Positions 1 through 52,925 of a DNA stretch of 64,000 nucleotides are shown here, one piece after another. Each line of letters starts with the position of its first letter. Within the stretch, counting starts at the first letter, position 1. A program made the translations under genes and the position numbers. A model generated the notes under the pieces. It ran no database searches and had not been told where the DNA came from. It saw only the letters and a list, made by a program, of their open reading frames with translations. The DNA is from Candidatus Babeliales bacterium (GTDB lineage: Bacteria; Babelota; Babeliae; Babelales; JBFXEV01): positions 1,110,769 to 1,174,768 of the forward strand of contig OY970310.1 in assembly GCA_963716425.1 (NCBI GenBank). Direction: 5' to 3'.

Positions 1-1809
1 AATTCGTTTAAATTTCTTTTCAATATCATGGGTTGGTAATAGCCATCCCGTGGGTCTTCCATGCGCACAAATGAATCTATTTTCACATGCATATAATTCA
101 TCAAGTAAAGCATGCATCTTTTCTAGAGTGAGAATATCGCCAGCTTTTATTGCAGCTTTGCAGGCCATCTGAGCATGTAATTTTTCATTAATCTGTTCAT
201 GGAGTTGCTCTGTGGTTACATCATGAGCGGCATCTACCCAACTGAGTATTTCCTTAATCAGTTCCTTGAAGGGAATTTCTTTTGCATGCACTGGCGTGCT
301 GGTGATACGTAATTGAGTGGAGCCAAATTGTTCAATGCCAATGCCATGGGTACACAGCAGTTCAAGGTGGGGTGCAATGAGTGCCAAATCGTCCTGAGAC
401 ATATCAATCAGGTGCGGGAACAGCAATTCAATAGTAGGCACATTGCCAAAGCGTGATTTAAATCGCTCATATAAAACGCGCTCATGTGCTGCATGCTGAT
501 CAACAATAAAAAGGCCGTCCTCGTGTTCAAGGAGAATATAGGTGTTCGATAACTGGCCGATAATAGTAAAGTTGTGATGCGGGTTCGTTTTTGTTTGAAT
601 TTCAGTATACGATTCAGGGGTACCATAGACCGGGTTGTGAGAATACGGTGATCCATGTACAGTTTGGAGTGAACTTAATATTGGTCTGAATGGCGGCACC
701 GGCCTGAGTGGTTGTGGCGGGATAATCAGTGACGTATCGGGGCCATTAAACGGATCATCGGGCGGCAACGTGGTGCTGCGTGATGGAGCAAAGGTAATAG
801 TACGCGCAAGTTGTTTTGAAAGATGATTTTCTAATGTTGCTTTTACTGCGGTGGTGAGCAAACTTGCAACGCGGCGCGGATGCACAAAAGAGACTTCCTC
901 TTTGCGAGGATGCGTATTGATATCCACATCGCACGGGTCTACTGTGATTGAAATACACCCTGCAGGATAGCGACCTGAGGGTAAAACATTCAAGTAACCG
1001 TTGAGCATTGCGCTCATTAATTCTTTATTTTTGACCCAGCGATTATTCACAAACAAAAAGATAGTATTGCGATCATAGCGGAAATATTGGTGATGTGTAA
1101 TAGCTCCTGTCACAAGAATCCCTTTTTGCTCATGTGGCACAAGTGCAATGGTGGTAGTGGACATTGCTGCAGGTAGCAATTGAGCCACACGTTCAATCAG
1201 CGTTGCTACCGGCGGGCAATTAAAGAGCTGTTTGCCGTCGTGCCACAGTATAAAATGCATTGATAAAAAGCTGAGGCAAAACGCTTCAAATTGTTGTTCT
1301 ATTGCGCGCCACTCGGTCACTTCTTTTTTAAGAAATTTTTTGCGGGCAGGGACGTTGTAAAATAGTTCTTGTATGCAAATATCCGTGCCAGTGGTTGCAC
1401 TTACATTGGTAACCGTTGTTGTGCCATCGGTAATATACACTTTAGTGGCCAGTTCATCGGTTGCCAGTTTGGTGATCAGTGTTACTTTGCTTACCGCTGC
1501 AATGCAAGCAAGAGCTTCACCACGAAAGCCGAATGTAGAGATGGTAGAGAGTTGATCAATAGTGGAAAGTTTGCTGGTTGCATGTCGGTCAAAACATTTT
1601 AGCGCATCGTCTGGTGACATGCCACACCCATTATCAATAACACGTATAAGGTGCGTGCCACCTTGTTCAATAAAGAGCTCAATGCGTGAAGCTTTAGCAT
1701 CAATGCTATTTTCTACAAGCTCTTTTACAATATTTGCGGGTCGTTCTACCACCTGGCCTGCAGCAATTTGATTGGCTTGCTCTGGTGGTAATTGTTTTAT
1801 TATGTTCAT
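1..1809 (-). CDS. mutL: DNA mismatch repair protein MutL (C-terminal few codons run off the left edge)
   Basis: Absent from the ORF track because it is edge-truncated. Manual minus-strand translation from the ATG at 1809 gives MNIIKQLPPEQANQIAAGQVVERPANIVKELVENSIDAKASRIEL, a GHKL ATPase N-terminus. DQHAAHER lies at approx 478-501 and FICAHGRPTGWLL at approx 40-78. The frame is still open at base 1. Confidence 0.9.
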   Translation of the reverse strand, partial: MNIIKQLPPEQANQIAAGQVVERPANIVKELVENSIDAKASRIELFIEQGGTHLIRVIDNGCGMSPDDALKCFDRHATSKLSTIDQLSTISTFGFRGEALACIAAVSKVTLITKLATDELATKVYITDGTTTVTNVSATTGTDICIQELFYNVPARKKFLKKEVTEWRAIEQQFEAFCLSFLSMHFILWHDGKQLFNCPPVATLIERVAQLLPAAMSTTTIALVPHEQKGILVTGAITHHQYFRYDRNTIFLFVNNRWVKNKELMSAMLNGYLNVLPSGRYPAGCISITVDPCDVDINTHPRKEEVSFVHPRRVASLLTTAVKATLENHLSKQLARTITFAPSRSTTLPPDDPFNGPDTSLIIPPQPLRPVPPFRPILSSLQTVHGSPYSHNPVYGTPESYTEIQTKTNPHHNFTIIGQLSNTYILLEHEDGLFIVDQHAAHERVLYERFKSRFGNVPTIELLFPHLIDMSQDDLALIAPHLELLCTHGIGIEQFGSTQLRITSTPVHAKEIPFKELIKEILSWVDAAHDVTTEQLHEQINEKLHAQMACKAAIKAGDILTLEKMHALLDELYACENRFICAHGRPTGWLLPTHDIEKKFKRI

Positions 1810-1829
1810 AACAAACAGGATACTCAATA

Positions 1830-2372
1830 TTACAGTGATTGCAATTGTGCAGTAAGGGTAAAGCGTGAGTGCGTTACCTGTTGAGCACTCTCAGGTTGCA
1901 AACTTGCAAGCTCTAGAGTACCAAAAATACGTGATCTGCGCAGAGCTTCTATAAATTGTTGCAATGAATGCGAGGATTCAGTGTAGCCAGAAAGTTGTAT
2001 ATTCTTTTTTTTGTGTAAGTCCGCAATAAATAAGCAGGTATCATCAGGAATGGTGGTTGCAATGGTGCGCAAATAGACTGCAGGTTTAAAACTTTTTTCA
2101 GCTTGTGCGCTTAAAGATGCTTCTTGCCCCTTAAGTTGTTCATGAGTGGCGGTAAGTTGTTTAATGCGTTCGCTTGCTAGATTAATGTGTTCGGTAACTT
2201 GTTTGAGTTCTTGAGCGCTCGCATCTGCAGTTTTGATCTGATAAAACTGATATGCATTGGTGAGCAAAAAGAGTACAGAAAGTGCTGCTGCCATGTTCAT
2301 GGTGATGCGATACCAATAGTATACAGCTTGTTGTTTTTCAGGTGGTGGTGTGTTGATAAAGTTAATGGTCAT
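1830..2372 (-). CDS. hypothetical membrane protein with PilN-like layout (type IV pilus assembly?)
   Basis: 180 aa. N-terminal INFINTPPPEK is followed by one TM helix (NMAAALSVLFLLTNAYQFYQI), a coiled-coil stretch and an alpha/beta tail. This resembles the PilN INLLP-TM-coiled-coil architecture, judged by eye only. Confidence 0.4.
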   Translation of the reverse strand: MTINFINTPPPEKQQAVYYWYRITMNMAAALSVLFLLTNAYQFYQIKTADASAQELKQVTEHINLASERIKQLTATHEQLKGQEASLSAQAEKSFKPAVYLRTIATTIPDDTCLFIADLHKKKNIQLSGYTESSHSLQQFIEALRRSRIFGTLELASLQPESAQQVTHSRFTLTAQLQSL

Positions 2373-2374
2373 AG

Positions 2375-2836
2375 TTAGTTCCTTGCCATGCTATAACATC
2401 CAATGCTACACAAAAGATCATCATATGCAACAGCATTATTCTGTAACAGAGGAATTTTTGCCCCTTCGCTGAGTGCATGCTGTTGTGCCAAGGTATACGT
2501 AGTAATACCTGCACAATGAAATGGTGTATTGATTGCAAGGAGTTGGCAGGCAAGCAGCTGATGTGCTGGAATATCATCTTTTTGGTGTAACATATCTGGT
2601 CTGAGTGCGATTGTTACAAATGCATGCGGTATCTTATGCTCGTTTAAAAATGAACGAATCGTCTGTTCAATCAGTATTGGTTGCGCAAAGGTGATTGGGG
2701 TGGGCATATGCGCTTTGCTATAAGCCTTAATATTGAACATGCCTTTATTGTGATGAAGCCAGATGCATTGTATACATTGTGTACCAAGAATCACGTTTAT
2801 AATTTGATTGGTGCATGGTGCAATAGGCAATACCAT
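2375..2836 (-). CDS. hypothetical protein
   Basis: 153-aa ORF packed exactly between prmC (ends 2837) and the PilN-like ORF (starts 2372). No recognisable motif. Confidence 0.45.
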   Translation of the reverse strand: MVLPIAPCTNQIINVILGTQCIQCIWLHHNKGMFNIKAYSKAHMPTPITFAQPILIEQTIRSFLNEHKIPHAFVTIALRPDMLHQKDDIPAHQLLACQLLAINTPFHCAGITTYTLAQQHALSEGAKIPLLQNNAVAYDDLLCSIGCYSMARN

Positions 2837-3724
2837 TTAAAATCTTCCCCATACCACACGATCTTTACCTTCAAGATCTTTTTGTATATCCACATGATGG
2901 AATCCCGCTTGCTTCATAAGTTCTTGGACTGCAGGTCCTTGCTTGTAACCAATTTCAATAACAAGGCGAGGCAAATGGCGCATATGGAGTTCAGAATCGG
3001 GATTCAAATGTGCGCTTGCTCTTCTAATAATACGTTCAATGATTGCAAGACCTTCGTGTATCGCAATAAGCGCATGGGGGTTTTCCCATTGAGTCACTGA
3101 TGGATCAAGAGTTTTCCATTCTTCTTGAGTAACGTAGGGTGGATTGCTTACAATAAGATCAAAGGTATCATGGGCTCCTAGATTGTCATATACATCGGAT
3201 TCAAGGAATGCAATATTATTAATATGATTGTGATGTGCATTGGTGCACGCAAGATCAAGTGCCTGTGGATCTACATCAAGTGCGGTTACCATTGCATTGG
3301 GTAATGCTTTTGCAAGTGCCAGTGCGATACAGCCCGATCCTGTACCAATATCCAAAATAGATAGATGTTGGTTTTTCAATGGGGTAAGCATATCAATAAG
3401 TTTGTATACGAGTTCTTCAGTTTCTGGTCGGGGAATGAGGATGGGCGGTTGTACAATGATATCAAGATCTGCAAAAGGGACTGTGCCCAAAATATATTGC
3501 AGTGGTTTATGATGCATTGTCAATTGTGCAATCCAAGCATCAAGTTGCTTTTGTTGTTGAGGTGATAGTTCAACCTCTTGTTGAGCTATTAACTTTGCTT
3601 GGGGCAATTTAGTAAGCGCTTCAACAAGCCACCATGCAGTTTGTTGCATGAGAATGGGGTCACGATATTCAGAATGTAGTTGTTTGGTGATCTCATCAAT
3701 AAGTGTGTTTATGTTTTGCTTCAT
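2837..3724 (-). CDS. prmC: release factor glutamine N5-methyltransferase PrmC/HemK
   Basis: 295 aa. SAM motif ILDIGTGSGCIALALA and catalytic IVSNPPYV (NPPY). Confidence 0.9.
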   Translation of the reverse strand: MKQNINTLIDEITKQLHSEYRDPILMQQTAWWLVEALTKLPQAKLIAQQEVELSPQQQKQLDAWIAQLTMHHKPLQYILGTVPFADLDIIVQPPILIPRPETEELVYKLIDMLTPLKNQHLSILDIGTGSGCIALALAKALPNAMVTALDVDPQALDLACTNAHHNHINNIAFLESDVYDNLGAHDTFDLIVSNPPYVTQEEWKTLDPSVTQWENPHALIAIHEGLAIIERIIRRASAHLNPDSELHMRHLPRLVIEIGYKQGPAVQELMKQAGFHHVDIQKDLEGKDRVVWGRF

Positions 3725-41633: not shown

Positions 41634-42701
41634 TTAAAGAGGGATATCGCTTGCCGCCGTTGCAGTCGCTTTGGTACCTTTCTGTTGCATGACCATGTTG
41701 ATTTGTTGAGTCCAAGTCGGGTGATATTGCGTGAGCTTTTTGCTATCGAATTTATCTTGATCTTCTGCGGCTCGGTGGATATTGTTTGGGTATGTTATGC
41801 TGCCAAAATCTGTGTGTGAGCATACTATCGCTGCGCATTTTTCTTGTTCTTCAAGTATTGGGCCTTTAATGCAATATAAGCAAAGAAGTTTGCAAACATC
41901 TCGTGGCAGCAGAGGATTAACTCTTTTACAACAGAGTAATATCGTTTTACAGAAATTATTTAAACTCAAATGTTTTCGTATGCGAGGTAGAGGAATATAG
42001 GTGACTAATATTTGTGCCATATCGGTATAACCTAACTTAATAGCTTTCTGGCAAATGGATTCAGGGTGAAGCTGGATCACGTGCATGGGACCCGGGTCAT
42101 TTGATTCATACGATTCCAATCTATTGGGATCGGCTCCTGCATCAAGGAGCATGCGCACTGCGGTATGATTGCGGCTATGGAGCGCGATGCTTAAAAGAAA
42201 GTCAGCCCTGTTTATGTTATTTGGAATAGTGACTATATTTTGATTGGGATCTGCCCCTTGGGCAAGAAACTTGCTTACTGTAGTATTATCTTGTGTTTTA
42301 ATTGCTTGGGCAAGGGGTATATAGATACACCACATCACGAGCCTAGAGGTATGGTCAAAGGGTGGTGCGCCTTGTTTATTCTTAATATTAATGCGAGCAC
42401 CAGCTTCCAAAAGGCATATGATTTTTTGTCGGTTTTCCATTTCTTCTTGGCTTTCTGCAAATTCTTGATCGCCTAGTTTTTGGCCAAATGCAAGATGCAA
42501 TGGCGTATCACCGTTATTATTTTGTGCGTTTACATCAGCCTTTGCTTCTATCAGTTTTTGAATCACTGTATCATTGCCAGCATCTTGGCTTATTACGGCA
42601 AGATGCAGTGGCATATTGCCTTTTACATTGGTGGCTGCATCCATACAGAATATTGGAGTGTTGAACAATAAGATAATTAGGTATAAAAGATAAGTAACCA
42701 T
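41634..42701 (-). CDS. secreted ankyrin-repeat protein with C-terminal F-box-like region
   Basis: 355 aa. Leader MVTYLLYLIILLFNTPIFCMD. GNMPLHLAV, LIEAKADVNAQNNNGDTPLHLA. ILLCCKRVNPLLPRDVCKLLCLYCI...YHPTWTQQI. Confidence 0.85.
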   Translation of the reverse strand: MVTYLLYLIILLFNTPIFCMDAATNVKGNMPLHLAVISQDAGNDTVIQKLIEAKADVNAQNNNGDTPLHLAFGQKLGDQEFAESQEEMENRQKIICLLEAGARINIKNKQGAPPFDHTSRLVMWCIYIPLAQAIKTQDNTTVSKFLAQGADPNQNIVTIPNNINRADFLLSIALHSRNHTAVRMLLDAGADPNRLESYESNDPGPMHVIQLHPESICQKAIKLGYTDMAQILVTYIPLPRIRKHLSLNNFCKTILLCCKRVNPLLPRDVCKLLCLYCIKGPILEEQEKCAAIVCSHTDFGSITYPNNIHRAAEDQDKFDSKKLTQYHPTWTQQINMVMQQKGTKATATAASDIPL

Positions 42702-43039
42702 TGCGTATCCCCCTTGGGTATTGGTTAGGGGTTATGCTATCCAACATTGAGTATAAAAGTATTTATTTGGGGGAAGCAAGGGTTTTATAGCATTTTACAC
42801 ATCTATAGAATTTCTGCGTGATCAATCGCATGAGATGCAAAAACTTGATCAAGCATTTTAAGCGTAACTTGCTGATCGTCTAAGCGTGTTCCAATTGGAC
42901 ACGCTAATTTTTAGAGCTGCAACGCTGTGTTATATTAAGCTTGTAAGAGTTATGAAAAGCGCTACACTTGTTCTGATCAATTTAGTCAATCTTTTATTTT
43001 ATATGGTAGAGTGATTGTAAACATAAAAGAGTTATAGCT

Positions 43040-44809
43040 ATGGCATTGAACAAAACTTCTATTATCCTTTCTTTTGTAGCATTTCTTACTATTTTTTTTG
43101 CGCAAGCAGGATTTGTTAAAGGTACAGTAGTCAAAACATCATCAGGATTTGTTCCTATAGAGGAACTTAATATTGGCGATGAAGTGTACTGTTTTGATAT
43201 GCATAATGATGAATTTTTACTGCGGACCATAACAGATGTATCAAGGCATGAAGTTTCGTATCTTTTGTATATTCAAACGAATGGTACTCACATAATTGTC
43301 GATGCCCAGCAACCTTTTTATTTACCGGTGGAAGAAGCGTGGTGTTATGCTGAAGATCTTCAACCCAGTATGGTGCTCTTAAGTTGTGATCAGCAACGCA
43401 TTATGGTACAGAATGTTAATGAAGTGTGCATTAATGCGCTGGTCTATGATATTACCGTTGATGAACTACATAATTTTTGTGTAACAACTGATGGCATAGT
43501 CGTTCATAATTTTTTTTGGGTAGCAATCCCATTAACTCTATCTCTTTCAAAAATTGCATATTCACTTGGAGTTGCTCTAGTAGCATATACCTGTTATGAT
43601 TTTGTACAAAAAAATACTGGAGCATCAAATGATCTTAATATAGATCTTTCTAATGCTCATTTCTCTGGTTTGATTGATCCATATAGTTCTCAAAAAAATC
43701 AACGATATGGTCATGATGGCTATGTGCATTTAGGCAATGAAAGCAGTCATAGTAATGCTGTCTTTGCATCTAATCAATCGCAAGAATCAATTAGTTCAGT
43801 GCCTACTTATGCTGCTAGAAAATTACCACAATCTCCTAGTGTGCATGATACTAGGTCATATGCTGTACCGAAGATTGAATCTGAGAAAATACTTGGTTGT
43901 GGCACTGGATTATTGCCTGCTTCTCCAGAGTTTGATCAGAATAAGCCTTCTTGTATTCAAGGAATTGATAATAATGGTGGCCGGACTTGTAACCCCGGCT
44001 TATTAATACCAGTTCCAAAAACTAATCTTGGTGAGCTTTGTGAAGTATCAGGTAGCAAAGATGATGATGCCGATACTAAGCTGCCAACGTGTGGTATTGG
44101 TTTGCAGCCAATACCTGAATCCAGAACTTTATGTAGTTGGAGTAACAATTCAACAAAACTAACTGTTTATCCTGAAAAAAAAATTGGTGGAAATCAGGAG
44201 AGTGATGCTGAAACTGATGAGGAAGAAGCCTATAAGAAATATGATAGTGAAAAGATTGATGTTGATGTTGGAACAGATCAGCAAGAGCCAGATCATCAAG
44301 ATAAAGAAGAAAATAATGTCCCATTAAAAGAAGAAATTAAAATCTCTTTGGAAGAGACTGTGAGAGCAATTAAAGAATTAGTTGATCAAAATCCTGAAAA
44401 AATTTGGTCAAAAATTACGCCTACTCAAGAATTCCATAATTCACATTCTTTAATACCTAAGTCATTTGTAATTAATGTAGAGGGACAATTAATTTGGGTA
44501 AATCCCAGTGGATCAAAACATCTTATGGAAGAAACCAGTCCCCCTCTTTCCGCGAGTAAAAGAAAAGATGCTAAACCCCTTAGGCAGGAAATTGATCCTT
44601 TGATATCTCCTTGGGATATTCCTGCAAAAGAATATAAATTTTCTCATGAGTTATTGCTTAATGATTTTTATGAAGATTTGCAAGCGGCTATAAAACCTGG
44701 CGTCAAATATGGGGAATTAATAATTATTAATTCATGGGAATTTAAATTTGATTATCCAAGCATTGAAAATGGTCATCCAATTCTTTTTCATGCTTTAAAG
44801 GTGAAATAA
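43040..44809 (+). CDS. signal peptide + Hint (intein-like) domain + TM + low-complexity linker + unknown C-terminal domain; polymorphic-toxin-like protein (type alpha tip)
   Basis: 589 aa. Leader MALNKTSIILSFVAFLTIFFAQA. Hint blocks GFVKGTVVKTSSGFVPIEELNIGDEV ... VYDITVDELHNFCVTTDGIVVHN. TM FFWVAIPLTLSLSKIAYSLGVALVAY. Ser/Gln/Asp-rich linker. C-terminal NPEKIWSKITPTQEFHN...SPWDIPAKEYKFSHELLLNDFY...NGHPILFHA. Confidence 0.8.
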   Translation: MALNKTSIILSFVAFLTIFFAQAGFVKGTVVKTSSGFVPIEELNIGDEVYCFDMHNDEFLLRTITDVSRHEVSYLLYIQTNGTHIIVDAQQPFYLPVEEAWCYAEDLQPSMVLLSCDQQRIMVQNVNEVCINALVYDITVDELHNFCVTTDGIVVHNFFWVAIPLTLSLSKIAYSLGVALVAYTCYDFVQKNTGASNDLNIDLSNAHFSGLIDPYSSQKNQRYGHDGYVHLGNESSHSNAVFASNQSQESISSVPTYAARKLPQSPSVHDTRSYAVPKIESEKILGCGTGLLPASPEFDQNKPSCIQGIDNNGGRTCNPGLLIPVPKTNLGELCEVSGSKDDDADTKLPTCGIGLQPIPESRTLCSWSNNSTKLTVYPEKKIGGNQESDAETDEEEAYKKYDSEKIDVDVGTDQQEPDHQDKEENNVPLKEEIKISLEETVRAIKELVDQNPEKIWSKITPTQEFHNSHSLIPKSFVINVEGQLIWVNPSGSKHLMEETSPPLSASKRKDAKPLRQEIDPLISPWDIPAKEYKFSHELLLNDFYEDLQAAIKPGVKYGELIIINSWEFKFDYPSIENGHPILFHALKVK

Positions 44810-44811
44810 TT

Positions 44812-45360
44812 GTGAATATTATGTATTTTCAATATACCATTATTAACGTTGTGAGTATAGAAAAGTTAATTGATGAGCATATACCCATGGATATACAGTT
44901 TGAATATAGTGAATATTCAAATATCCATAATCGCATTGAATATAGAACTGAAAATTATTACATGTTTTTTAAAATAGGAGACCTATTTGGAGAATTAGTT
45001 GGTATTACCCTTTTATGTAATAAAAATTATAATTTCATCAATGATAATATTTCACTTGATCAATTACCCTATAATAACAGTATTGTTGCACTTAAAATTA
45101 AGAATATTAATCAATTCGCAAAAAGACCGTATCTTGATAATGGCGTTAATTATACTATTTCAGAATCATGTAAAGTTGATGTTTATAAGGATGCTTTGAA
45201 AATATCAATGCCAAATGCACCAGAGCCTGTTTTTTGTATAATGAACAACGATTTCGGTGTTCTTACAGATATTGAATTTAATATTTGTTCATTTGTGTTG
45301 AAGGGTATTACCTTAGTTGAGCATGCTTACTTACAAGATCATGCAAAACGATCTACTTAA
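44812..45360 (+). CDS. small ORF 1 downstream of Hint gene (candidate immunity/partner protein, type alpha)
   Basis: 182 aa. GTG start 3 nt after the upstream stop. No signal peptide and no known motif. The N-terminal half differs between units and the C-terminal half is conserved. Confidence 0.6.
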   Translation: MNIMYFQYTIINVVSIEKLIDEHIPMDIQFEYSEYSNIHNRIEYRTENYYMFFKIGDLFGELVGITLLCNKNYNFINDNISLDQLPYNNSIVALKIKNINQFAKRPYLDNGVNYTISESCKVDVYKDALKISMPNAPEPVFCIMNNDFGVLTDIEFNICSFVLKGITLVEHAYLQDHAKRST

Positions 45361-45724
45361 AAAGAAAGCTATGTTAGAACATAACAATAAAATCATACAA
45401 AAAATTATTGAATTAAAAAAAACAGATATTCTAGAATTGCTGCGGTACGGACTAGAACATGAATTCATTGATGGTGAATTTTGCTCAAGTGTTGTAATAG
45501 AGCTTTTGAGTAAAAATATTATCACAGATAATCCGTATGCCTTAGATATCGCTAGTTTAATTCGTACTAAATATGAAAATCAATATGAAAAAACTCAATT
45601 ACTAATCGTAGAAGCAACAAAGAAGACTGATGTTACCTATAATGAGAGAAAGCAACTTTACAATAAAATATGGTTTTATATATTTCAGCTTAATGATCTT
45701 TTAACATCAGGATTTATAGAGTGA
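45323..45724 (+). CDS. small ORF 2 (second candidate partner protein); start 45323 or 45341
   Basis: About 128-134 aa. Overlaps the end of ORF 1 in another frame. Nearly identical in unit 2. No known motif. Confidence 0.55.
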   Translation: MLTYKIMQNDLLKKKAMLEHNNKIIQKIIELKKTDILELLRYGLEHEFIDGEFCSSVVIELLSKNIITDNPYALDIASLIRTKYENQYEKTQLLIVEATKKTDVTYNERKQLYNKIWFYIFQLNDLLTSGFIE

Positions 45725-45742
45725 GGCCTTGCAATAATGCAG

Positions 45743-45898
45743 TTACTAGATCTGTAGGGGAAATCCATGCTCCCGCAGATAGCACATGATTTTTTCTCCA
45801 ATGTGTGGCATACAGCCTTCTACATTGGTGGCTGTATCCATGCAGAATATGGAAGAGCTGAATTGTAGGGTGATCAAGTAAAAGAGGTGAGTAATCAT
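45743..45898 (-). pseudogene. 5' remnant of an ankyrin gene (paralog of 41634..42701)
   Basis: Minus-strand translation MITHLFYLITLQFSSSIFCMDTATNVEGCMPH..LQI*, compared with intact MVTYLLYLIILLFNTPIFCMDAATNVKGNMPLH. It stops after 51 codons. The upstream region also matches 42702-42790. Confidence 0.7.
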
Positions 45899-46158
45899 TG
45901 CGTATCCCCCATGGATATTGGTTAGGGGTTTTGCTATCTAGTACTGAGTATAAAAGTATTTATTTTTGGACAAGCAAGGGTTTAATTGCAATTAGGCGAA
46001 AGTGTTTAATTGCGCTAGGACACGCTTAATTTTTAGACTGCTGCAGCACTGTGATATATCACGCTTGTAAGAGTTATGAAAAGCGCTACACTTGTTCTGA
46101 TCAATTTGGTCAATCTTGTATATGGTAGAGTGATTGTAAACATAAAAGAGTTACAACT

Positions 46159-47886
46159 ATGGCATTGAACAAAACTTCTATCCTCCTTTCCTTTGTAGCA
46201 TTTCTTACCATTTTTTTTGCGCAAGCAGGTTTTGTTAAAGGTACCGTAGTTAAAACAGCATCAGGATTTGTTCCTATAGATGAACTTAATATTGGCGATG
46301 AAGTGTACTGTTTTGATATGCATAGTGATGAACTTTTACTGCGGACCATAACAGATGTATCAAGGCATGAAGTTTCGTATCTTCTGTATATTCAAACGAA
46401 TGGTACTCACATAATTGTCGATGCCCAGCAACCTTTTTATTTACCGGTGGAAGAAGCGTGGTGTTATGCTGAAGATCTTCAACTCAGTATGGTGCTCTTA
46501 AGTTGTGATCAGCAACGCATTCTGGTACAGAATGTTAATGAAGTGTGCATTAATGCGCTGGTCTATGATATTACCGTTGATGAACTACATAATTTTTGTG
46601 TAACAATTGATGGCATAGTCGTTCATAATTTTTTTTGGGTAGCAATCCCATTAACTCTTTCTCTTTCAAAAATTGCATACTCACTTGGAGTTGCTGTAGT
46701 AGCATATGCGTGTTATGATTTTGTACAAAAAAATACTGGAGCATCAAATGATCTTAATATAGATCTTTCTAATGCTGATTTCTCTGGCTTCATTGATCCA
46801 TGTAGTTCTCAAAAAAATCAACAATATGGTCGTGATGACTATGCGTATTTAGGCAATGAAAGCAGTCATGGTAATGTTGTATTTGTATCTAATCAATCGC
46901 AAGAATCAATTAGTTCAGTGCCTACATATGCTACTAGAAAATTACCACAATCTCCTAGTGTGCATGATACTAGGTCATTTGCTGTACCGAAGATTGAATC
47001 TGAGAAGATACTTGGTTGTGGGACTGGATTATTGCCTGCTTCTGGAGAGTTTGATCAGAATAAGCCTTCTTGTATTCAAGGAATTGATAATAATGGTGGC
47101 CGGACGTGTGACACTGTCTTATTAATACTAGCTCCAGAAACTAATCTTGGTAAGCTTTGTGAAGTATCGGGTAGCAAAGATGATGATAGAGATAGTAAGC
47201 TGCCAACTTGTGGTATTGGTTTGCAGCCTATACCTGAACCCAGAACTTCTTGTAGTTGGAGTAACAATTCAACAAAACTAACTATTTATCCTGAAAAAAA
47301 AATTGGTGGAAATCAAGAGAGTGATGCTGAAACTGATAAAGAAGAAGCCGATAAGAAATATGATAGTGAAAAGATAGATATTGGTGTTGAAAGAGATCAG
47401 CACGAGCTAGGTCATCAAGATAAAGAAGAAATTAAAGTCTCTTTGGAAGAGACTGTGAGAATAATTAAAGAATTAGCTGAACAAAATCCTGAAAAAATTT
47501 GGTCAAAAATTACTCCAACTCAAGAATTTCATAATCCTCATTCGCTTATACCGCAATCATTTACAATTGAAGTAGATGGTCAAATTTTGTGGATGCATCC
47601 AAATGCTACAAAACATTTGATGGAAAATACAAGTCCCGTCAAAGAGGAAAGAGATAAGATTGATGATTTAAGATCTCCCTGGGATATTCCTTCAAAAGAG
47701 TATAAGTTTTCACATGAATTACTTCTTAACGATTTTTATGCAGCCTTACAGGAAGCGATAAGATCGGGGATAAAATACAAACAACGATTAGTTATTAATT
47801 CATGGCAGTTGGAATTTGGTTATCCTCGAATAGACAACGGTCATCCTATCGTTTTCCATGCTCGAAAGGAAAGAGCGCATGGATAA
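46159..47886 (+). CDS. Hint-domain polymorphic-toxin-like protein, copy 2 (type beta tip)
   Basis: 575 aa. The first approx 160 residues differ from copy 1 at only about 8 positions. The C-terminal approx 110 residues are much more divergent (HPNATKHLMENTSPVKEERDKIDDLRSPWDIPSKEYKFSHELLLNDFYAALQEAIRSGIKYKQRLVINSWQLEFGYPRIDNGHPIVFHA). Confidence 0.8.
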   Translation: MALNKTSILLSFVAFLTIFFAQAGFVKGTVVKTASGFVPIDELNIGDEVYCFDMHSDELLLRTITDVSRHEVSYLLYIQTNGTHIIVDAQQPFYLPVEEAWCYAEDLQLSMVLLSCDQQRILVQNVNEVCINALVYDITVDELHNFCVTIDGIVVHNFFWVAIPLTLSLSKIAYSLGVAVVAYACYDFVQKNTGASNDLNIDLSNADFSGFIDPCSSQKNQQYGRDDYAYLGNESSHGNVVFVSNQSQESISSVPTYATRKLPQSPSVHDTRSFAVPKIESEKILGCGTGLLPASGEFDQNKPSCIQGIDNNGGRTCDTVLLILAPETNLGKLCEVSGSKDDDRDSKLPTCGIGLQPIPEPRTSCSWSNNSTKLTIYPEKKIGGNQESDAETDKEEADKKYDSEKIDIGVERDQHELGHQDKEEIKVSLEETVRIIKELAEQNPEKIWSKITPTQEFHNPHSLIPQSFTIEVDGQILWMHPNATKHLMENTSPVKEERDKIDDLRSPWDIPSKEYKFSHELLLNDFYAALQEAIRSGIKYKQRLVINSWQLEFGYPRIDNGHPIVFHARKERAHG

Positions 47887-48424
47887 TTTATATTTTGAAT
47901 TGAGCACAATTCATATGATAAGTATGAAAAAAACGATAGATAAATATATGCCTTTGAGTATCGAATTTAAATATAATACTTATTCACATACTCATAATTG
48001 GATTGAATACCAAACGCCAAATCATTTTATGGAGTTTAGTATTGGTAATGAGTTTGGTGAGTTAATTAGTTTTACACTCGTACGTCATAAAATGTATAAT
48101 TTCATAAGTGGCAATATTGAGCTTAGCCAATATCCTTTGCATGAAGTGATTACTGGAATAAAAATAAAGAATTATGAAAATGTAAAAAAAGAATTTTACA
48201 ATAATGGATTTTATTATACTATTTCAGAATCATGTATAGTTGATGTCTATAATGATGCTTTGAAAGTATCAATGACAAATGCACCAGAGCCTGTTTTTTG
48301 TATAATGAACAACGATTTCGGTGTTCTTACAGATATTGAACTTAATATTTGTTCATTTGTTTTGAAGGGTATTACCTTAGTTGAGCATGCTTACTTCCAA
48401 GATCATGCAAAACGATCTACTTAA
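47879..48424 (+). CDS. small ORF 1, unit 2 (candidate immunity/partner, type beta)
   Basis: ATG overlaps the upstream stop (gcgcATGGATAA). The N-terminal half is strongly diverged from unit 1. The C-terminal half (APEPVFCIMNNDFGVLTDIE.NICSFVLKGITLVEHAY.QDHAKRST) is nearly identical. Confidence 0.6.
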   Translation: MDNLYFELSTIHMISMKKTIDKYMPLSIEFKYNTYSHTHNWIEYQTPNHFMEFSIGNEFGELISFTLVRHKMYNFISGNIELSQYPLHEVITGIKIKNYENVKKEFYNNGFYYTISESCIVDVYNDALKVSMTNAPEPVFCIMNNDFGVLTDIELNICSFVLKGITLVEHAYFQDHAKRST

Positions 48425-48788
48425 AAAGAAAACTATGTTAGAACATAATAATAAAATCATACAAAAAATTATTGAATTAAAAAAAATAGATATTCTAGAA
48501 TTGCTGCGGTACGGACTAGAACATGAATTCATTGATGGTGAATTTTGCTCAACTGTTGTAATAGAGCTTGTGAGTAAAAATATTATCACAGATAATTCGT
48601 ATGTCTTAGATATCGCTAGTTTAATTCGTACTAAATATGAAAATCAATATGAAAAAGCTCAATCACTAATCGTAGAAGCAACAAAAAAGACTGATGTTAC
48701 CTATAACGAGAGAAAGCAACTTTACAATAAAATATGGTTTTATGTATTTCAGCTTAATGATCTTTTAAAATCAGGATTTATAGTGTGA
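48387..48788 (+). CDS. small ORF 2, unit 2
   Basis: Nearly identical to 45323..45724 (MQNDLLKKK.MLEHNNKIIQKIIELKK.DILELLRYGLEHEFIDGEFCS). Confidence 0.55.
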   Translation: MLTSKIMQNDLLKKKTMLEHNNKIIQKIIELKKIDILELLRYGLEHEFIDGEFCSTVVIELVSKNIITDNSYVLDIASLIRTKYENQYEKAQSLIVEATKKTDVTYNERKQLYNKIWFYVFQLNDLLKSGFIV

Positions 48789-48789
48789 A

Positions 48790-48878
48790 GCATTGCAGTA
48801 ATGCCGTTGCTGGATCTGTAGGGGTAATCCATGTTATGCTCCTGCAGATAGTACGTGATTTTTCTCCAATGCGTGGCA
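48790..48878 (-). pseudogene. internal ankyrin-repeat remnant
   Basis: One minus-strand frame reads ATHWRKITYYLQEHNMDYPYRSSNGITAMLH, a decayed ANK repeat. Homologous DNA follows small ORF 2 in units 1 and 3 (..tgcag.a.tgc.gtt.ct.gatctg). Confidence 0.5.
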
Positions 48879-48881
48879 TAA

Positions 48882-49313
48882 CAAAATCCTGAAAAAATTT
48901 GGTCAAAAATTACTCCAACGCAGGAATTTGACAATCCGCATTCTCTTATTCCTAAATCATTCATTATTGATATAGATGTTCAACTTATATGGGTTTGCCC
49001 CAATGCTTCACAGCATCTTATCGGGGAGACAAGCCCATCTGGTTCCGAGAGTAAAAGAAAAGATGCTAAACCACTTAGACAGGAAATTGATTCCTTGATG
49101 TCTCCTTGGGATATTCCTACAAAAGAATATAAATTGTCTCATGAGTTATTGCTTAATGAATTTTATGAAGCAATTCAGAAGGCAATAAAATCAGATATAG
49201 TATATAATGAATTGTTAATTATTAATTCTTGGCAATTAAAATTTGTTTATCCAAGATTTGAAAGTGGGTATCCGGTCCTTTTTCATGATTATAGGGATAA
49301 AAATAGTGAGTAA
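48882..49313 (+). pseudogene. start-less orphan C-terminal cassette of the Hint protein (type alpha tip)
   Basis: The frame opens right after TAA at 48879-48881 with QNPEKIWSKITPTQEFDNPHSLIPKSFIIDIDVQLIWV...SKRKDAKPLRQEIDSLMSPWDIPTKEYKLSHELLLNEFYE...VLFHDYRDKNSE*. There is no ATG before 49098 and no N-terminal part. Confidence 0.7.
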
Positions 49314-49853
49314 GTTATATTTTCAATATGGTATTATAAAACTTAGTAGTGCGGAGAAAACAATTGATGAATATATACCAATGAATATAAAATTTGAATA
49401 TGATATATATTCGGATATTCGCCATAGGATTGAGTATCGCACTGAAAATTATTATATGTTTTTTAAAATAGGGGACCAATTTGGAGAATTAGTTGGTATT
49501 ACTCTTTTATGTAATAAAAATTATAATTTTATCAATGATAATATTTCACTTGATCAATTACCCTATAATAACAGCATTATTGCACTTAAAATTAAGAATA
49601 TTAATCAATTCGTAAAAAGACGTATCTTGATAATGGCGTTAATTATACTATTTCAGAATCATGCATAGTTGATGTCTATAATGATGCCTTGAAAATATCA
49701 ATGCCAAATGCGCCAAAACCTGTTTTCTGTATAATGAACAGCAATTTTGGTGTTCTTACAGATATTGAACTTAATATTTGTTCATTTGTGTTGAAGGGTA
49801 TTACCTTAGTTGAGCATGCTTACTTACAAGATCATGCAAAACGATCTACTTAA
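49306..49853 (+). pseudogene. small ORF 1, unit 3 (type alpha), frameshifted
   Basis: GTG start overlaps the orphan stop as in unit 1. A 1-nt deletion lies near 49614-49626 (aaaaagacgtatc versus aaaaagaccgtatc in unit 1). The downstream frame is otherwise open to 49853. Confidence 0.75.
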
Positions 49854-50210
49854 AAAGAAAACTATGTTAGAACATAATAATAAAATCATTAAAAAAATTA
49901 TTGAATTAAAAAAAATAGATATTCGAGAATTGCTGCGATATGGACTAGAACATGAATTTATTGATGGTGAATTTTGCTCAGCTATCGCACTTGAACTCAT
50001 GAGTAAGAATATCAGCAATGATACTATTGTGGAGCTTGCTAGTTTAATTCGAAATAAATATGAAAATCAATATGAGAAAGCATATGCAATAATGAATGAA
50101 GCAACAAAAAAACTGATGTTACCTATAATGAGAGAACGCAACTTTACAATAAAATATGATTTTATATATTTCAGCTTGATGATCTTTTAAAATCAGGATT
50201 TATAGAGTGA
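49834..50210 (+). pseudogene. small ORF 2, unit 3, frameshift plus nonsense
   Basis: A 1-nt deletion lies near 50105-50112 (gcaacaaaaaaactgatg versus gcaacaaaaaagactgatg). In addition TGG is changed to TGA (aaaatatgatttt versus aaaatatggtttt). Confidence 0.7.
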
Positions 50211-50240
50211 AGCCTTGCAGTACTGCAGTTGCTGGATCTG

Positions 50241-50408
50241 ATGGCAAAAAAACGAAGGCATCCAAAAAATGGAAACATTGGTTGGCCTGATAGGGAAGGA
50301 AATATTTGGGTACCTACGGGACCAAATGATCATGGAGGACGTCATTGGGACGTTCAAGATCGTGATGGAAGGCATAGAAATGTACATCCGAAAAAAAATA
50401 ATAGTTGA
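50241..50408 (+). CDS. 55-codon basic His/Gly/Trp-rich ORF (toxin-tip-like), below the ORF-track cutoff
   Basis: Manual translation: MAKKRRHPKNGNIGWPDREGNIWVPTGPNDHGGRHWDVQDRDGRHRNVHPKKNNS*. It begins exactly where homology to the amplified unit ends (..gctggatctg|ATG). Confidence 0.4.
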   Translation: MAKKRRHPKNGNIGWPDREGNIWVPTGPNDHGGRHWDVQDRDGRHRNVHPKKNNS

Positions 50409-50413
50409 TTATT

Positions 50414-50689
50414 ATGGAAAAAGAATTTTACTTGAAATGCAAACGATTATGGTTTTTTTCTCCCACAGATGAAGATATTTTTTTTGAATGGGTAAAAACT
50501 ATTCCAGCTATTTATAAGATAGATGGCGAGCTTGATGAGGAGCATCTTTATGTTCGCAAAGCAACTTTATCCGATAAAGATCTGAAGGAAATTGTCTCCT
50601 TATTTCGTCGCTATAAAATAGATCGAAAGCAACTGAAAGTTTTTCTTACTGATGATAATAAGCATTGGTTGGCAAAATGGCTTACATAA
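50414..50689 (+). CDS. small paralog A of a four-gene tandem family (candidate immunity-type protein)
   Basis: MEKEFYLKCKRLWFFSPTDEDIFFEWVKTIPAIYKIDG...LVSLFRRYKIDRKQLKVFLTDDNKHWLAKWL. Confidence 0.6.
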   Translation: MEKEFYLKCKRLWFFSPTDEDIFFEWVKTIPAIYKIDGELDEEHLYVRKATLSDKDLKEIVSLFRRYKIDRKQLKVFLTDDNKHWLAKWLT

Positions 50690-50970
50690 TTATTGGGAAA
50701 TATATGGTTGATTTAAATTGTAAAAAAGTACTTTTTTATTCACCTATGGATGAAGCTTTTTTTTTTGATTGGATATCAAGAATTCCAGCAGTAATAAAAG
50801 TAGAAAAAATTTCTGATGAAATTCATTTACATGTGAGAAGTATTCGGATTTCTTATGAAAATTTGGATAAATTAGTATCACTATTTCAACGATATAAAAT
50901 AAAAAGAAGGCAATTAGGTGTGTTTTTAAACGATAGAAATAAACATTGGTTGTCAAGATTGATTAAATAA
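50677..50970 (+). CDS. small paralog B (start 50677 or 50704)
   Basis: ..LNCKKVLFYSPMDEAFFFDWISRIPAVIKVE...LVSLFQRYKIKRRQLGVFLNDRNKHWLSRL. Confidence 0.6.
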   Translation: MAYIIIGKYMVDLNCKKVLFYSPMDEAFFFDWISRIPAVIKVEKISDEIHLHVRSIRISYENLDKLVSLFQRYKIKRRQLGVFLNDRNKHWLSRLIK

Positions 50971-51007
50971 TTTTTGAATATGTAAAGTAACATATTGAGA
51001 TTACCAA

Positions 51008-51280
51008 ATGGATATAGCTAGCATGGAAAAAGATATTGTTATAAGTTGTAAACGTGTGCGTTATTATACAGAAATTGATGAAGAATATTTTTTTGAATGG
51101 ATAGATCAAATTCCTTCTATATATAAGATTGATGGTCAACATGATGAACTGTATCTTCATTTAAAAACACATCAAATATCAGATGAAGAATTTAAAAATT
51201 TAGTGGCATTATTTAAGCGTTATAAGATACCTGCTATAAAGCAATTGCGTGTTTTTTCTAATGTTAATAAGTATTTATGA
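51008..51280 (+). CDS. small paralog C
   Basis: ..ISCKRVRYYTEIDEEYFFEWIDQIPSIYKIDG...LVALFKRYKIPAIKQLRVFSNVNKYL. Confidence 0.6.
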   Translation: MDIASMEKDIVISCKRVRYYTEIDEEYFFEWIDQIPSIYKIDGQHDELYLHLKTHQISDEEFKNLVALFKRYKIPAIKQLRVFSNVNKYL

Positions 51281-51576
51281 GCATAAAGGTTAACGATACC
51301 ATGGAAAATAAACAACTTTTTTTTACTGGAAAAAATGTAATATTTTATTCATCAATTGATGAAGCATTTTTTTATAAATGGGTTAAAAATATTTCATGTA
51401 TTGATGGGGTAGAAAATGTTTCTGGAGATTTTATTTTTTATCTGAAGAATCATAATATAAATAGCCAAGATTTAGATAGATTGGTAGGTTTGTTTGCTCG
51501 ATACTTAATTGATACTAAACAATTAAAAATTTTCTTGACTGATCAAAACAAGCCATGGCTTAAATATTGGGTTTAG
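51277..51576 (+). CDS. small paralog D
   Basis: ATGA overlap with paralog C. ..GKNVIFYSSIDEAFFYKWVKNISCIDGVE...LVGLFARYLIDTKQLKIFLTDQNKPWLKYW. Confidence 0.6.
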   Translation: MSIKVNDTMENKQLFFTGKNVIFYSSIDEAFFYKWVKNISCIDGVENVSGDFIFYLKNHNINSQDLDRLVGLFARYLIDTKQLKIFLTDQNKPWLKYWV

Positions 51577-51582
51577 AAGTAC

Positions 51583-51824
51583 ATAGTGGATCAAAACATT
51601 TGATGGAAAATACAAGTCCCGTCAAAGAGGAAAGAGATAATATTGATGAATTAAGATCTCCCTGGGATATTTCTTCAAAAGAGTATAAGTTTTCACATGA
51701 ATTACTTCTTAACGATTTGTATGCAGCCTTACAGGAAGCGATAAAATCGGAGATAAAATACAAACAACGATTAGTTATTAACTCATGGCAGTTAGACTTT
51801 GGCAATCTGCTCTTCACGTGTTGA
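51583..51824 (+). pseudogene. fourth, truncated orphan fragment of the Hint-protein C-terminal domain (mostly type beta)
   Basis: HSGSKHLMENTSPVKEERDNIDELRSPWDISSKEYKFSHELLLNDLYAALQEAIKSEIKYKQRLVINSWQLDFG, then unrelated NLLFTC*. No start and no following small ORFs. Confidence 0.65.
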
Positions 51825-52925
51825 AGTTGCTTGCAATAGTTTTGGTCTTGTTTGAATTGCACGTGAGATTTGTTCTCTCCAGAGTGGATAGTACGTAGGT
51901 AAGTTAGAGGCATCGAGTATCGCGCTCTGCTCAACCCAAGCCATATACGGTTTTGCTTGTTCACACATTTTCTGAGCGATGCTCAGTTGAGCTTCAAGCG
52001 CCTTGGCTTTCACAAAATAGTGACACAACAGAAGGTGAAGGTCTCTGCAGAGATTTGGCATTTCTCGTTTAAAACAAGCAAGCAACATTAAACCATTGGT
52101 ATTCCATTGATGTCTTATAGTTGATCTTGATACGTGAGTGAATAGGAGTTGTGCCATTTCTGGACTGCCTTCAGAAAGCGCAAGAACGCATATTGGTGTA
52201 GAAATTGATGGTTGATATCCTCTAGAAAATGATGGTTCTTTCAAAAAAGAAGATTTTGCAGGATCAGCACCAGCATCAAGAAGTAAGCATGCAGCTTCCA
52301 CACGTTGGTATGAGGTTGCGATATTTAAGAGGCCAGGCACTTTGACTCCATAGGCAGATCTAAGCGGACAGTTTCCATGAGTATTTATAATAAAATGATT
52401 AGGGTCAGCGCCTTGAGCAAGCAACCGCCTTAACCTTTGAGTATCACTTTCCTCAATGGATGTAATACATCGCGCATATATGTAATCCTCAAAGAGTGGG
52501 TGGTCATGCATTGCCAGGCTTTTAGACATGCTCGGTAAGTTAATGTGTGCTCCTGCCCCCAATAGGATTCTACCTATTGTGTTTGCTGCTTCCATTTTTA
52601 TCATCCCGATACTCAAGACCATACAGAGTGGTGTGCCGCCCATGCGATTGAGGGCATTCACATCAGCACCAGCTTCAACAAGTGCACTAACGCCTTGCGT
52701 AAACAATTTTTGAGCTGCCAAATGGAGAGGAGTATTGGCGTCAGCTCCATGACGCGCATTCACTTGTATTCCCTGAGTCTTGAGAGCTCTTTTTAATTTT
52801 GTGATATCTTTTTTTTGTAGAGCTTCAAATAATTGTCCATCCATGGCCAACTGTGGTGAGCTTATCAGCAGGGCTATAATGAAGGTAAGTGAAGGAATTA
52901 AATTAGTCTTTTGGTTCAGGTACAT
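51792..52925 (-). CDS. secreted ankyrin-repeat protein with C-terminal F-box-like region
   Basis: 377 aa. Leader ..LTFIIALLISSPQLAMD. ANTPLHLAAQKLFTQGVSALVEAGADVNALNRMGGTPL. MLLACFKREMPNLCRDLHLLLCHYFV...YYPLWREQI. Confidence 0.85.
   Translation of the reverse strand: MYLNQKTNLIPSLTFIIALLISSPQLAMDGQLFEALQKKDITKLKRALKTQGIQVNARHGADANTPLHLAAQKLFTQGVSALVEAGADVNALNRMGGTPLCMVLSIGMIKMEAANTIGRILLGAGAHINLPSMSKSLAMHDHPLFEDYIYARCITSIEESDTQRLRRLLAQGADPNHFIINTHGNCPLRSAYGVKVPGLLNIATSYQRVEAACLLLDAGADPAKSSFLKEPSFSRGYQPSISTPICVLALSEGSPEMAQLLFTHVSRSTIRHQWNTNGLMLLACFKREMPNLCRDLHLLLCHYFVKAKALEAQLSIAQKMCEQAKPYMAWVEQSAILDASNLPTYYPLWREQISRAIQTRPKLLQATSTREEQIAKV

Follow-up and report, generated by a model that had tools for sequence, protein, structure and literature searches.

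A toxin array in the genome of a Candidatus Babeliales bacterium, probably a parasite of amoebae, is the subject of this analysis. It lies on the plus strand, at 42.9-51.9 kb of a 64,000-nucleotide stretch of contig OY970310.1 (assembly GCA_963716425.1, positions 1,110,769 to 1,174,768; the whole stretch is referred to as the window, and coordinates are those of the window), and it contains two complete units, each made up of a toxin gene followed by two small open reading frames (ORF 1 and ORF 2). The two units are nearly identical except in one block, which extends from the C-terminal tip of the toxin into ORF 1. The alternative forms of this block, alpha in unit 1 and beta in unit 2, are most probably old alleles of a specificity cassette, in which a toxin and its immunity protein stay together as a linked pair and which recombination has moved about within a polymorphic-toxin array.

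Unit 1 begins with toxin gene 1 (43040-44809, plus strand as are all features of the array; 589 amino acids; taken from the ORF list and from a Pfam PT-HINT match), which bears the alpha tip. Its product reads, in order: a signal-peptide-like N-terminus (amino acids 1-24, ending ..FFAQA before a G), a PT-HINT domain (amino acids 30-157), a hydrophobic segment (amino acids ~158-190), a low-complexity linker and the predicted C-terminal tRNase domain. ORF 1 alpha (44821-45360, 179 amino acids from the ATG at 44821; a GTG at 44812 is also possible) encodes a protein of which an identical copy is already on record (P0005); ORF 2 of this unit (45371-45724) encodes 117 amino acids from its ATG. In unit 2 the corresponding genes are toxin gene 2 with the beta tip (46159-47886, 575 amino acids; PT-HINT E=1.4e-12; tip domain from 47482), ORF 1 beta (47879-48424, 181 amino acids from the ATG at 47879) and ORF 2 (48435-48788, from the ORF list). 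The spacer between toxin and ORF 1 is given as 2-11 nucleotides, with ORF 1 starting 3-12 nucleotides past the toxin stop, and the two versions have lengths of 179 and 181 amino acids.

The block was mapped by self-BLAST, by a three-way alignment of the units and by a base-by-base mismatch map. In unit 1 the mismatch map and synonymous divergence place it at 44419-45147, where it takes in most of the tip domain, the spacer and approximately the first 110 codons of ORF 1; in unit 2 the three-way alignment places the beta allele at 47514-48211. Inside 44419-45147 the two units have 225 mismatches in 698 positions (32.2%) and 31 gap columns in addition, against 86 in 1493 (5.8%) in the upstream flank (42897-44418) and 23 in 577 (4.0%) in the downstream flank (45148-45724); the contrast between block and flanks has a Fisher exact p of 1.3e-68. 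A previous interpretation of this DNA (the sequence-only reading) had called for just such a discrete block, as opposed to uniform divergence, and the identity map along the units agrees with it. It had also described the copies as near-identical over the Hint/transmembrane region, the second half of ORF 1 and ORF 2, and as divergent over roughly the first 110 codons of ORF 1. Outside the block the units indeed share 93-98% of their nucleotides (96% over the second half of ORF 1 together with ORF 2), and the 3' limit falls just 5' of the YTISES codons of ORF 1, at about codon 110. The 5' limit comes directly after a 29-nucleotide stretch that is identical in all three units (the third is an orphan, described below) and codes for QNPEKIWSKIT. 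Divergence had been said to start at FVINVEGQ; that is so for the protein, but in the nucleotide sequence the onset lies about 15 codons earlier: the stretch QNPEKIW..SLIPK is conserved as protein and yet has a proportion of synonymous differences (pS) of 0.54. The two types themselves are present with the motifs by which they had been defined, the SKRKDAKPLRQEID insert of alpha against VKEERDKIDDLR of beta, and ELIIINSWEFKF against QRLVINSWQLEF.

How old is the difference? Synonymous divergence (dS) and the ratio of nonsynonymous to synonymous divergence (dN/dS) were estimated for unit 1 against unit 2 by the method of Nei and Gojobori. From 0.07 in the HINT domain (dN/dS 0.31) and 0.14 in the hydrophobic segment with the linker (amino acids 161-474; dN/dS 0.50), dS rises to 1.30 in the tip block (dN/dS 0.19) and 1.18 in the N-half of ORF 1 (dN/dS 0.34), and then falls to 0.05 both in the C-half of ORF 1 (dN/dS 0.80) and in ORF 2 (dN/dS 0.82). 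Selection on the protein cannot account for a 10-25-fold excess of synonymous change; the flanks are far younger than the block. In the dN/dS check that had been proposed, recently accelerated change is not what the ratios of 0.19 in the tip and 0.34 in the ORF 1 N-half indicate: on average both have been under purifying selection. At the amino acid level alpha and beta are 62% identical in the tip and about 44-46% identical in the N-half of ORF 1, and 91% identical in its C-half.

What the block encodes can be read from two lines of homology. The alpha tip (44387-44806, amino acids 450-589 of toxin 1) by itself matches chain 7vmc_B of the PDB, designated 'tRNA nuclease CdiA', in a phmmer search (E=5.8e-8), and a profile of 54 tip sequences matches one solved protein, the same 7vmc_B (E=2.7e-37, chain residues 192-306). 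An AlphaFold2 (AF2) model of the alpha tip (pLDDT 88.6, pTM 0.84) has 7vmc_B as its top Foldseek match in the PDB (E=6.4e-9, probability 1.00, target-normalised template-modelling score 0.84); the next matches, ParE-type toxins, come with E above 0.2. By sequence and by model the tip is thus a homologue of the BECR-fold nuclease CdiA-CT(EC869), and its predicted activity is that of a tRNA acceptor-stem nuclease with two catalytic histidines. CdiA-CT(EC869) is a BECR-fold tRNase with two three-stranded sheets around a long helix; it cuts the acceptor stem of specific tRNAs, with EF-Tu/Ts/GTP promoting the cleavage; its toxicity is lowered by mutation of His216, His281 or Arg271, the two histidines being proposed by the authors as catalytic; its immunity protein, CdiI, masks the active site, while EF-Tu binds helix alpha3 on the opposite face (PMC9071432). 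H494 and H584 of toxin 1 align with His216 and His281 and are invariant in 54 of 54 aligned sequences, and the two catalytic histidines are retained, together with a near-invariant Glu, in both full toxin genes. Pfam and NCBIfam assign no family to the window tip. A long loop between alpha2 and alpha3 (44540-44640, tip amino acids ~500-528) is a 29-residue insertion relative to EC869; it ends in a conserved SPW(D/N)(I/V)PAKE(Y/F/L) motif, and Babeliales-type tips share it with their closest relatives (P0010-P0013). Nowhere else is the tip model of low confidence, and the 9-residue alpha/beta indel falls within this loop.

The case for ORF 1 as the partner is less direct. The first ORF 3' of each tip was extracted from the loci found across bacteria (n=76), and 66 of these 76, mostly 160-197 amino acids long, form a single BLAST cluster with both ORF 1 proteins of the window. 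A profile of the 62 members from outside the Babeliales matches ORF 1 beta at E=5e-12 and ORF 1 alpha at E=7e-9 (full length, Z=1e6), and the joint profile of the family matches 7vmc_C, which is CdiI(EC869), at E=3.7e-39 over residues 4-177. A profile of only the four Babeliales ORF 1 sequences finds nothing significant in the PDB, and Pfam and NCBIfam give no family for ORF 1, so that the link to CdiI(EC869) is a transitive one. By transitive homology and by position, then, ORF 1 is classed as a CdiI(EC869)-family immunity protein, which by homology would block the active site of the tip; that tip and ORF 1 constitute a toxin-immunity pair is well supported by these comparisons. RNase activity of the tip and its neutralisation by ORF 1 would follow. 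(A note on the exceptions: nine EC869-type tips, at loci L014, L034, L037, L061, L068, L070, L071, L076 and L087, mostly in Bacteroidota with a few in Pseudomonadota, precede a different ORF family of 107-144 amino acids, a sign that this toxin domain may have a second family of immunity proteins.)

The same pairs of alleles recur in other genomes. L005, an independent contig from a close relative, carries a beta pair: the tip is 86% and the ORF 1 N-half 95% identical in amino acids to unit 2, with dS of 0.14-0.24. The succession of beta tip and beta ORF 1, reported beforehand for unit 2, is therefore seen a second time. L001 is a distant Babeliales metagenome-assembled genome, with a linker only 37-40% identical in amino acids, and its pair is alpha-like: tip and ORF 1 N-half are both 71% identical to alpha, against 64% and 45%, respectively, to beta. 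Since the L001 genome is so distant, the split between alpha and beta must be at least as old. Trees of block and flanks are in conflict: the flanks group unit 1 with unit 2, while in the block unit 2 goes with L005, and unit 1 goes (at 71-87%) with the orphan and L001. Wherever an intact pair was seen (units 1 and 2, L001, L005), tip type and ORF 1 type have been inherited together. The flanks of units 1 and 2 differ from each other by a dS of 0.05-0.11 but from L005 by 0.23-0.47; they are younger than the split from L005 (dS about 0.2-0.4), which points to recent duplication or gene conversion within the genome.

The orphan is the third unit. Its tip (48882-49313) begins exactly at the QNPEKIW codons and has neither a start codon nor a carrier; its ORF 1 (49315-49853) is a pseudogene with a frameshift near 49640, alpha-like from about codon 40; its ORF 2 (49864-50207) has a frameshift near its 3' end and is returned by tblastn as two pieces in different frames. 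The sequence-only reading took it for a second alpha tip followed by an alpha-type ORF 1. This holds for the loop insert and for ORF 1 from about codon 40, but the tip is a mosaic that includes segments of a third type: these correspond to 44432-44521 and 44657-44926 in unit 1 coordinates, only the loop insert and the later part of ORF 1 being alpha-like, and the orphan tip as a whole is 65% identical in amino acids to that of unit 1, hardly more than the 62% between alpha and beta. Around 48990 it has Gly in place of a Glu that is retained in 46 of 50 family members, so that it may be inactive; judged by this substitution and its frameshifts, the unit is decaying.

Older tenants of the site can be recognised further downstream. 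L003, from a close relative, is syntenic here: its two ankyrin genes are the same, and between them stands one HINT-Ntox37 toxin with four small ORFs behind it. The window retains a remnant of an Ntox37 tip (50241-50408, the last 55 codons; Pfam Ntox37 PF15535, E=1.5e-9), with 95% nucleotide identity to the L003 Hint-Ntox37 tip (L003 9305-10644 covers the tip end and the four ORFs), and after it four paralogous small ORFs of ~90-100 amino acids each (50405-51576), identified by their similarity to the L003/L004 ORFs, to which they are 93-95% identical in amino acids; Pfam and NCBIfam give no family for these four. Remnant and ORFs together are probably a displaced ancestral module with a four-fold immunity array. 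In L005 a complete beta unit stands directly before the orthologous downstream ankyrin gene. The synteny with L003 and L005 means that EC869-type cassettes have displaced the Ntox37 tip and left orphans downstream. The last of the pieces in the window is a beta-type tip fragment without an ORF 1 (51567-51824, 95.7% identity to 47609-47819), which may be the stump of a deleted unit; it also lacks the domain start and overlaps the 3' end of a minus-strand ankyrin gene (51792-52925).

The history that these facts best support, and probably the right one, can be sketched as follows. The 730-bp block would be a specificity cassette, composed of the nuclease domain that follows the QNPEKIW boundary and of about 110 N-terminal residues of the immunity protein; alpha and beta would be two old alleles, each under purifying selection, and would be kept as linked pairs because a mismatched recombinant risks self-intoxication. 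The shared flanks (carrier and linker on one side, immunity C-half and ORF 2 on the other) would have been duplicated recently or homogenised within the genome and, being common to both alleles, would supply homology arms on both sides for exchanging the cassette. As new cassettes arrived one after another, the tips already present were displaced downstream and survive as orphans, namely the mosaic with its alpha-like parts, what is left of the Ntox37 tip together with four ORFs, and the beta fragment. Origin of the block by a mutagenic process of the diversity-generating-retroelement type was considered and set aside, in view of its indels, its saturated synonymous change and the presence of the same alleles in other genomes.

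Does the block also carry the surface at which toxin and immunity protein recognise each other? Projected on the tip model, alpha/beta differences amount to 42-62% in the strands, in the long loop and in the helix that bears the first catalytic His, and to 17% in helix alpha3. Covariation was examined in 59 non-redundant tip-immunity pairs from other phyla, the immunity N-part being taken as residues 1-110: tip distance correlates with N-part distance at r=0.74 and with C-part distance at r=0.61, and as partial correlations these become 0.54 and 0.10. Subsampling the N-part to the length of the C-part gives an r of 0.72 +/- 0.02, and the difference between N-part and C-part persists without Babeliales sequences. 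In the window itself tip and ORF 1 types are adjacent in one contiguous block, so that their co-occurrence amounts to linkage and is not by itself evidence of an interface. Model and pair comparison are indirect signs that the variable residues may form the toxin-immunity interface.

The sequence-only reading had seen in these units a co-diversifying cognate toxin-immunity pair. By homology there is indeed a toxin tip with a cognate-type immunity gene; it is the word 'co-diversifying' that finds no support, at a dS of 1.2-1.3 in the block against 0.05-0.14 outside it. The corresponding scenario is a recent tandem duplication, followed by rapid, positively selected, paired change in the tip and the immunity N-half. 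The 93-98% identity of the flanks speaks for the duplication, the confinement of divergence to the part that is expected to carry specificity speaks for the selection, and so does an ORF 1 N-half dN/dS of 0.34 between the types as compared with 0.19 within beta. It is nonetheless highly improbable: selection on the protein cannot lift dS in the block to 10-25 times that of the flanks, dN/dS in the block stays below 0.35, and beta (L005) and alpha-like (L001) alleles exist in other genomes, one of them distant. Gene conversion alone has somewhat more to recommend it. Old paralogues would have been homogenised from both ends within the genome, leaving the block as the unconverted part with no selection on pairing; as in concerted evolution, the flanks are more alike within the genome (dS 0.05-0.11) than to L005 (0.23-0.47), and the orphan has several internal mosaic junctions. 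However, the limits of the block are functional ones, lying where the nuclease domain starts and where the variable half of the immunity protein ends, and L005 (beta) compared with unit 1 (alpha) also has conserved flanks, for example an ORF 1 C-half that is 84% identical in amino acids next to an N-half at 46%. Largely compatible with allele exchange, from which it departs only by denying selection against mismatched pairs, this account is unlikely to be the whole story.

Could the genes be directed at a eukaryotic host instead? The toxin would then be a host effector, or an inactive relic, with ORF 1 and ORF 2 as chaperones or export adaptors and the block as an adaptation to host targets. 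The relatives in Babeliales and the ankyrin-rich surroundings, typical of protist parasites, suit such a proposal; so do the poor conservation of the EF-Tu contacts of EC869, the absence of the Arg271 equivalent from unit 1, the lineage-specific character of ORF 2 and the lack of any linked interbacterial secretion system. Yet the two full genes keep the near-invariant Glu as well as both catalytic histidines; the ORF 1 family includes a proven immunity protein and follows tips in 66 of 76 loci, in free-living bacteria of many phyla; and stacks of orphan tips and immunity genes, like immunity-only pairs (L088), are hallmarks of interbacterial toxins. Moreover, a nuclease aimed at a host would still need an immunity protein: the target changes, the logic of pairing does not. 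The proposal seems distinctly improbable.

Exchange of old, linked alleles remains the preferred explanation, but it has its own difficulties, which are collected here. Values of dS above 1 are near saturation, so that the ages are rough. In the orphan, itself in decay, the tip is only 65% identical to alpha and ORF 1 is 87% identical: tip and ORF 1 have not always kept in step. The Arg271 equivalent, amino acid 574 of toxin 1 (44759-44761), is Ser; since Arg or Lys stands there in 43 of 50 members of the family, the alpha toxin may be attenuated. The residues with which EC869 contacts EF-Tu (Tyr220, Tyr284, probably Leu221 and Gln235) are mostly replaced in the tip, so that the tip may use the cofactor differently and may even act on another RNA. 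For ORF 1, an AF2 model made from a 4-sequence alignment has a pLDDT of 31.8, too low for comparison with the beta-sandwich fold of CdiI(EC869). In the covariation analysis the immunity N-part is less saturated and better aligned than the C-part (mean distance 0.72-0.74 as against 0.80-0.86), which could alone raise r. As to export, linker and tip would, on the topology predicted, remain in the cytoplasm, and Pfam and NCBIfam detect in the toxin only the PT-HINT and intein motifs, with no export or trafficking module of the type V secretion/two-partner secretion (T5SS/TPS), type VI (T6SS PAAR/VgrG/Rhs) or type VII (T7SS LXG/WXG) kinds.

The carrier that brings the tip is unusual. PT-HINT (PF07591) is found in toxin 1 at E=2e-12, along with an NCBIfam intein C-terminal motif (E=3.9e-7) that ends in HN. 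The HINT domain starts, directly after the signal-peptidase-like AQA, with Gly instead of the usual Cys, while its C-terminal HN is kept; a hydrophobic segment of ~30 residues and then the long low-complexity linker come after it. From these features toxin 1 would have a signal peptide and a transmembrane segment, HINT would act as an autoprotease, and some route of export is presumed. A word-indexed protein search with the full toxin yields four proteins: the toxin itself, P0002, P0003 and a distant HINT protein. P0003 is a 585-amino-acid Babeliales protein with a tip of the same family. P0002 (458 amino acids), the toxin at the syntenic L003 site, has the same carrier with an Ntox37 tip (PF15535, E=8e-10); it is 86% identical to the toxin carrier in amino acids over the first 220 residues, and 83% over 60% of the query. 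In P0004, a distant relative, the order HINT, hydrophobic segment, linker and tip is kept and the N-terminal hydrophobic segment is missing.

ORF 2 is found only beside ORF 1, and only in Babeliales-like contigs. It has no Pfam match; a precomputed tag on its relatives, 'DUF2247 (weak)', was not reproduced even at E<=10. Identical at 96% of nucleotides between the units, it has a dN/dS of 0.14-0.19 between genomes and is under purifying selection. Contig L088 (positions 1-3404, from Logan SRR28201383) shows ORF 1 and ORF 2 in another setting: a related carrier with a different tip and a 290-amino-acid ORF are followed by a beta-like ORF 1 homologue (E=7e-28 to the family profile) and an ORF 2, with no EC869-type tip, and then by a paralogue of the 290-amino-acid ORF. 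The arrangement looks like an immunity-only ORF 1-ORF 2 pair that was kept after its tip had been replaced.

The array as a whole has a G+C content of 0.29-0.36, compared with ~0.40 around it, and is flanked by two minus-strand ankyrin-repeat genes. Conserved non-coding sequence of ~50-90 nucleotides lies 3' of ORF 2 in all three units (45725-45812 after unit 1, recurring at 48789-48880 and partly at 50191-50240, by self-BLAST and direct reading), and each orphan tip is joined to it at a different point. A role as terminator is conceivable, and so is one as a favoured place for cassettes to insert; a simple terminator scan did not flag it, and in a scan for promoters and terminators over 42.5-52 kb the counts were at or below shuffle expectation. 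The sequence 5' of toxin 1 (42608-42795), which overlaps the start of the upstream minus-strand ankyrin gene (41634-42701), is repeated 5' of toxin 2 (45805-45993) with 81% identity; what was duplicated in tandem therefore takes in the region presumed to hold the promoter.

An exhaustive search with the tip profile gives 338 representatives at E<=1e-3. In all 149 homologues listed the tip domain ends no more than 7 residues from the C-terminus, and its N-terminal partners include RHS repeats and core, PT-TG, LXG, WXG100, extracellular contractile injection system (eCIS) core, DUF4280, MuF and PT-HINT. So varied a set of partners and so fixed a C-terminal place mark it as a polymorphic-toxin tip. 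When one genome was scanned for each species, 80 loci with EC869-type tips came up, in Bacillota, Actinomycetota, Pseudomonadota, Bacteroidota, Cyanobacteriota, Planctomycetota, Dependentiae and others. None of 10 homologues scanned has a Pfam domain over the tip: this is a widespread tip family that fits no Pfam-A or NCBIfam model. The EC869 tRNase-immunity family is now also placed in Babeliales-like genomes, on a carrier that is unrelated to that of contact-dependent growth inhibition (CDI).

A bolder reading, possible but doubtful, joins two proposals: that the cassette has two homologous arms and takes only half of the immunity gene with it, and that the carrier may stand for a delivery route that has not been described. 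The CdiI-family protein would consist of a variable N-terminal specificity module (~110 amino acids) and a constant C-terminal scaffold; the scaffold, with lineage-specific ORF 2, would be the downstream arm and the QNPEKIW boundary the upstream arm. If this is true, a single reciprocal event of homologous recombination could exchange toxin specificity together with immunity specificity. In classical CDI/Rhs displacement one end is homologous and the other illegitimate. The carrier, with its signal peptide, Cys-less PT-HINT and hydrophobic segment, is apparently of a self-cleaving and undescribed type; its presence in obligately intracellular Dependentiae gives a hint of a route of delivery and, perhaps, of a target, be it co-infecting bacteria or the organelles of a host, also undescribed.

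How does the locus compare with systems that are better known? The nearest in its parts is the CdiA-CT/CdiI pair of E. coli EC869 (the orphan-11 module; 7VMC; Wang et al. 2022, PMC9071432), which has a homologous tip with both histidines at the extreme C-terminus, a gene of the CdiI family (~180 amino acids) downstream, and stacked orphan modules of tip and immunity gene. The differences are nonetheless considerable: the window toxin has a carrier made up of signal peptide, PT-HINT, hydrophobic segment and linker in place of the TPS/filamentous-hemagglutinin (FHA) filament and VENN boundary, and it has no CdiB; its tip has the 29-residue SPWDIPAKEY loop, and the EF-Tu contacts are not conserved; the unit that is swapped ends in the middle of the immunity gene, and a conserved ORF 2 is added. 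Pfam and NCBIfam find none of the parts of a CdiA filament (TPS domain, FHA repeats, VENN boundary) in the 589-amino-acid toxin, and no CdiB; the neighbours are ankyrin genes. On this comparison of sequences the locus shares only its tip and immunity modules with CDI.

With polymorphic toxins in general the resemblance is broader. The framework is reportedly that of Zhang, Aravind and co-workers (2012), and the Pfam families PT-HINT and Ntox37 are said to be used in it. The window likewise has a constant N-terminal part with alternative tips (EC869-type here, Ntox37 in L003), a pre-toxin HINT, immunity genes directly downstream and orphan cassettes (48882-50207, 50241-51576, 51567-51824). PT-HINT usually sits directly before the tip, as it does in L050, whereas in the window it is at the N-terminus, ~290 residues and a hydrophobic segment away from the tip; its HINT starts with Gly rather than Cys; and no link to T5, T6 or T7 secretion was found. 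In the library of papers searched, none mentions both 'Dependentiae' and 'polymorphic toxin'. As a toxin-immunity cassette the locus is of a kind already known, and among polymorphic-toxin loci it is ordinary, though clean. Three features raise it above the usual: it has this carrier, in a lineage that lives inside cells; its cassette stops, on the 3' side, within the immunity gene; and its widespread tip family fits no model.

For the shape of the divergence, the closest parallel is in the nuclease colicins (E2/E9, E3/E6), in which, reportedly since the work of Riley in 1993 and in later studies, differences cluster in the 3' end of the colicin gene and in the immunity gene. There, as in the window, sharply bounded divergence covers the immunity-binding end and the immunity gene of operons that are otherwise nearly identical, although proteins, organisms and delivery differ. 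In the window dS is near saturation and alleles are shared across genomes, which indicates old alleles moved by recombination and not, as with recent diversifying selection, new ones. One can think of the two units as a natural experiment on specificity: what distinguishes the alleles, on an otherwise identical background, is confined to the nuclease domain and to ~110 residues at the start of the immunity protein, and so predicts where immunity specificity lies. They also carry a caution: a divergent block beside identical flanks mimicked rapid co-diversification, and it is the synonymous divergence that reveals old variation, shuffled by recombination.

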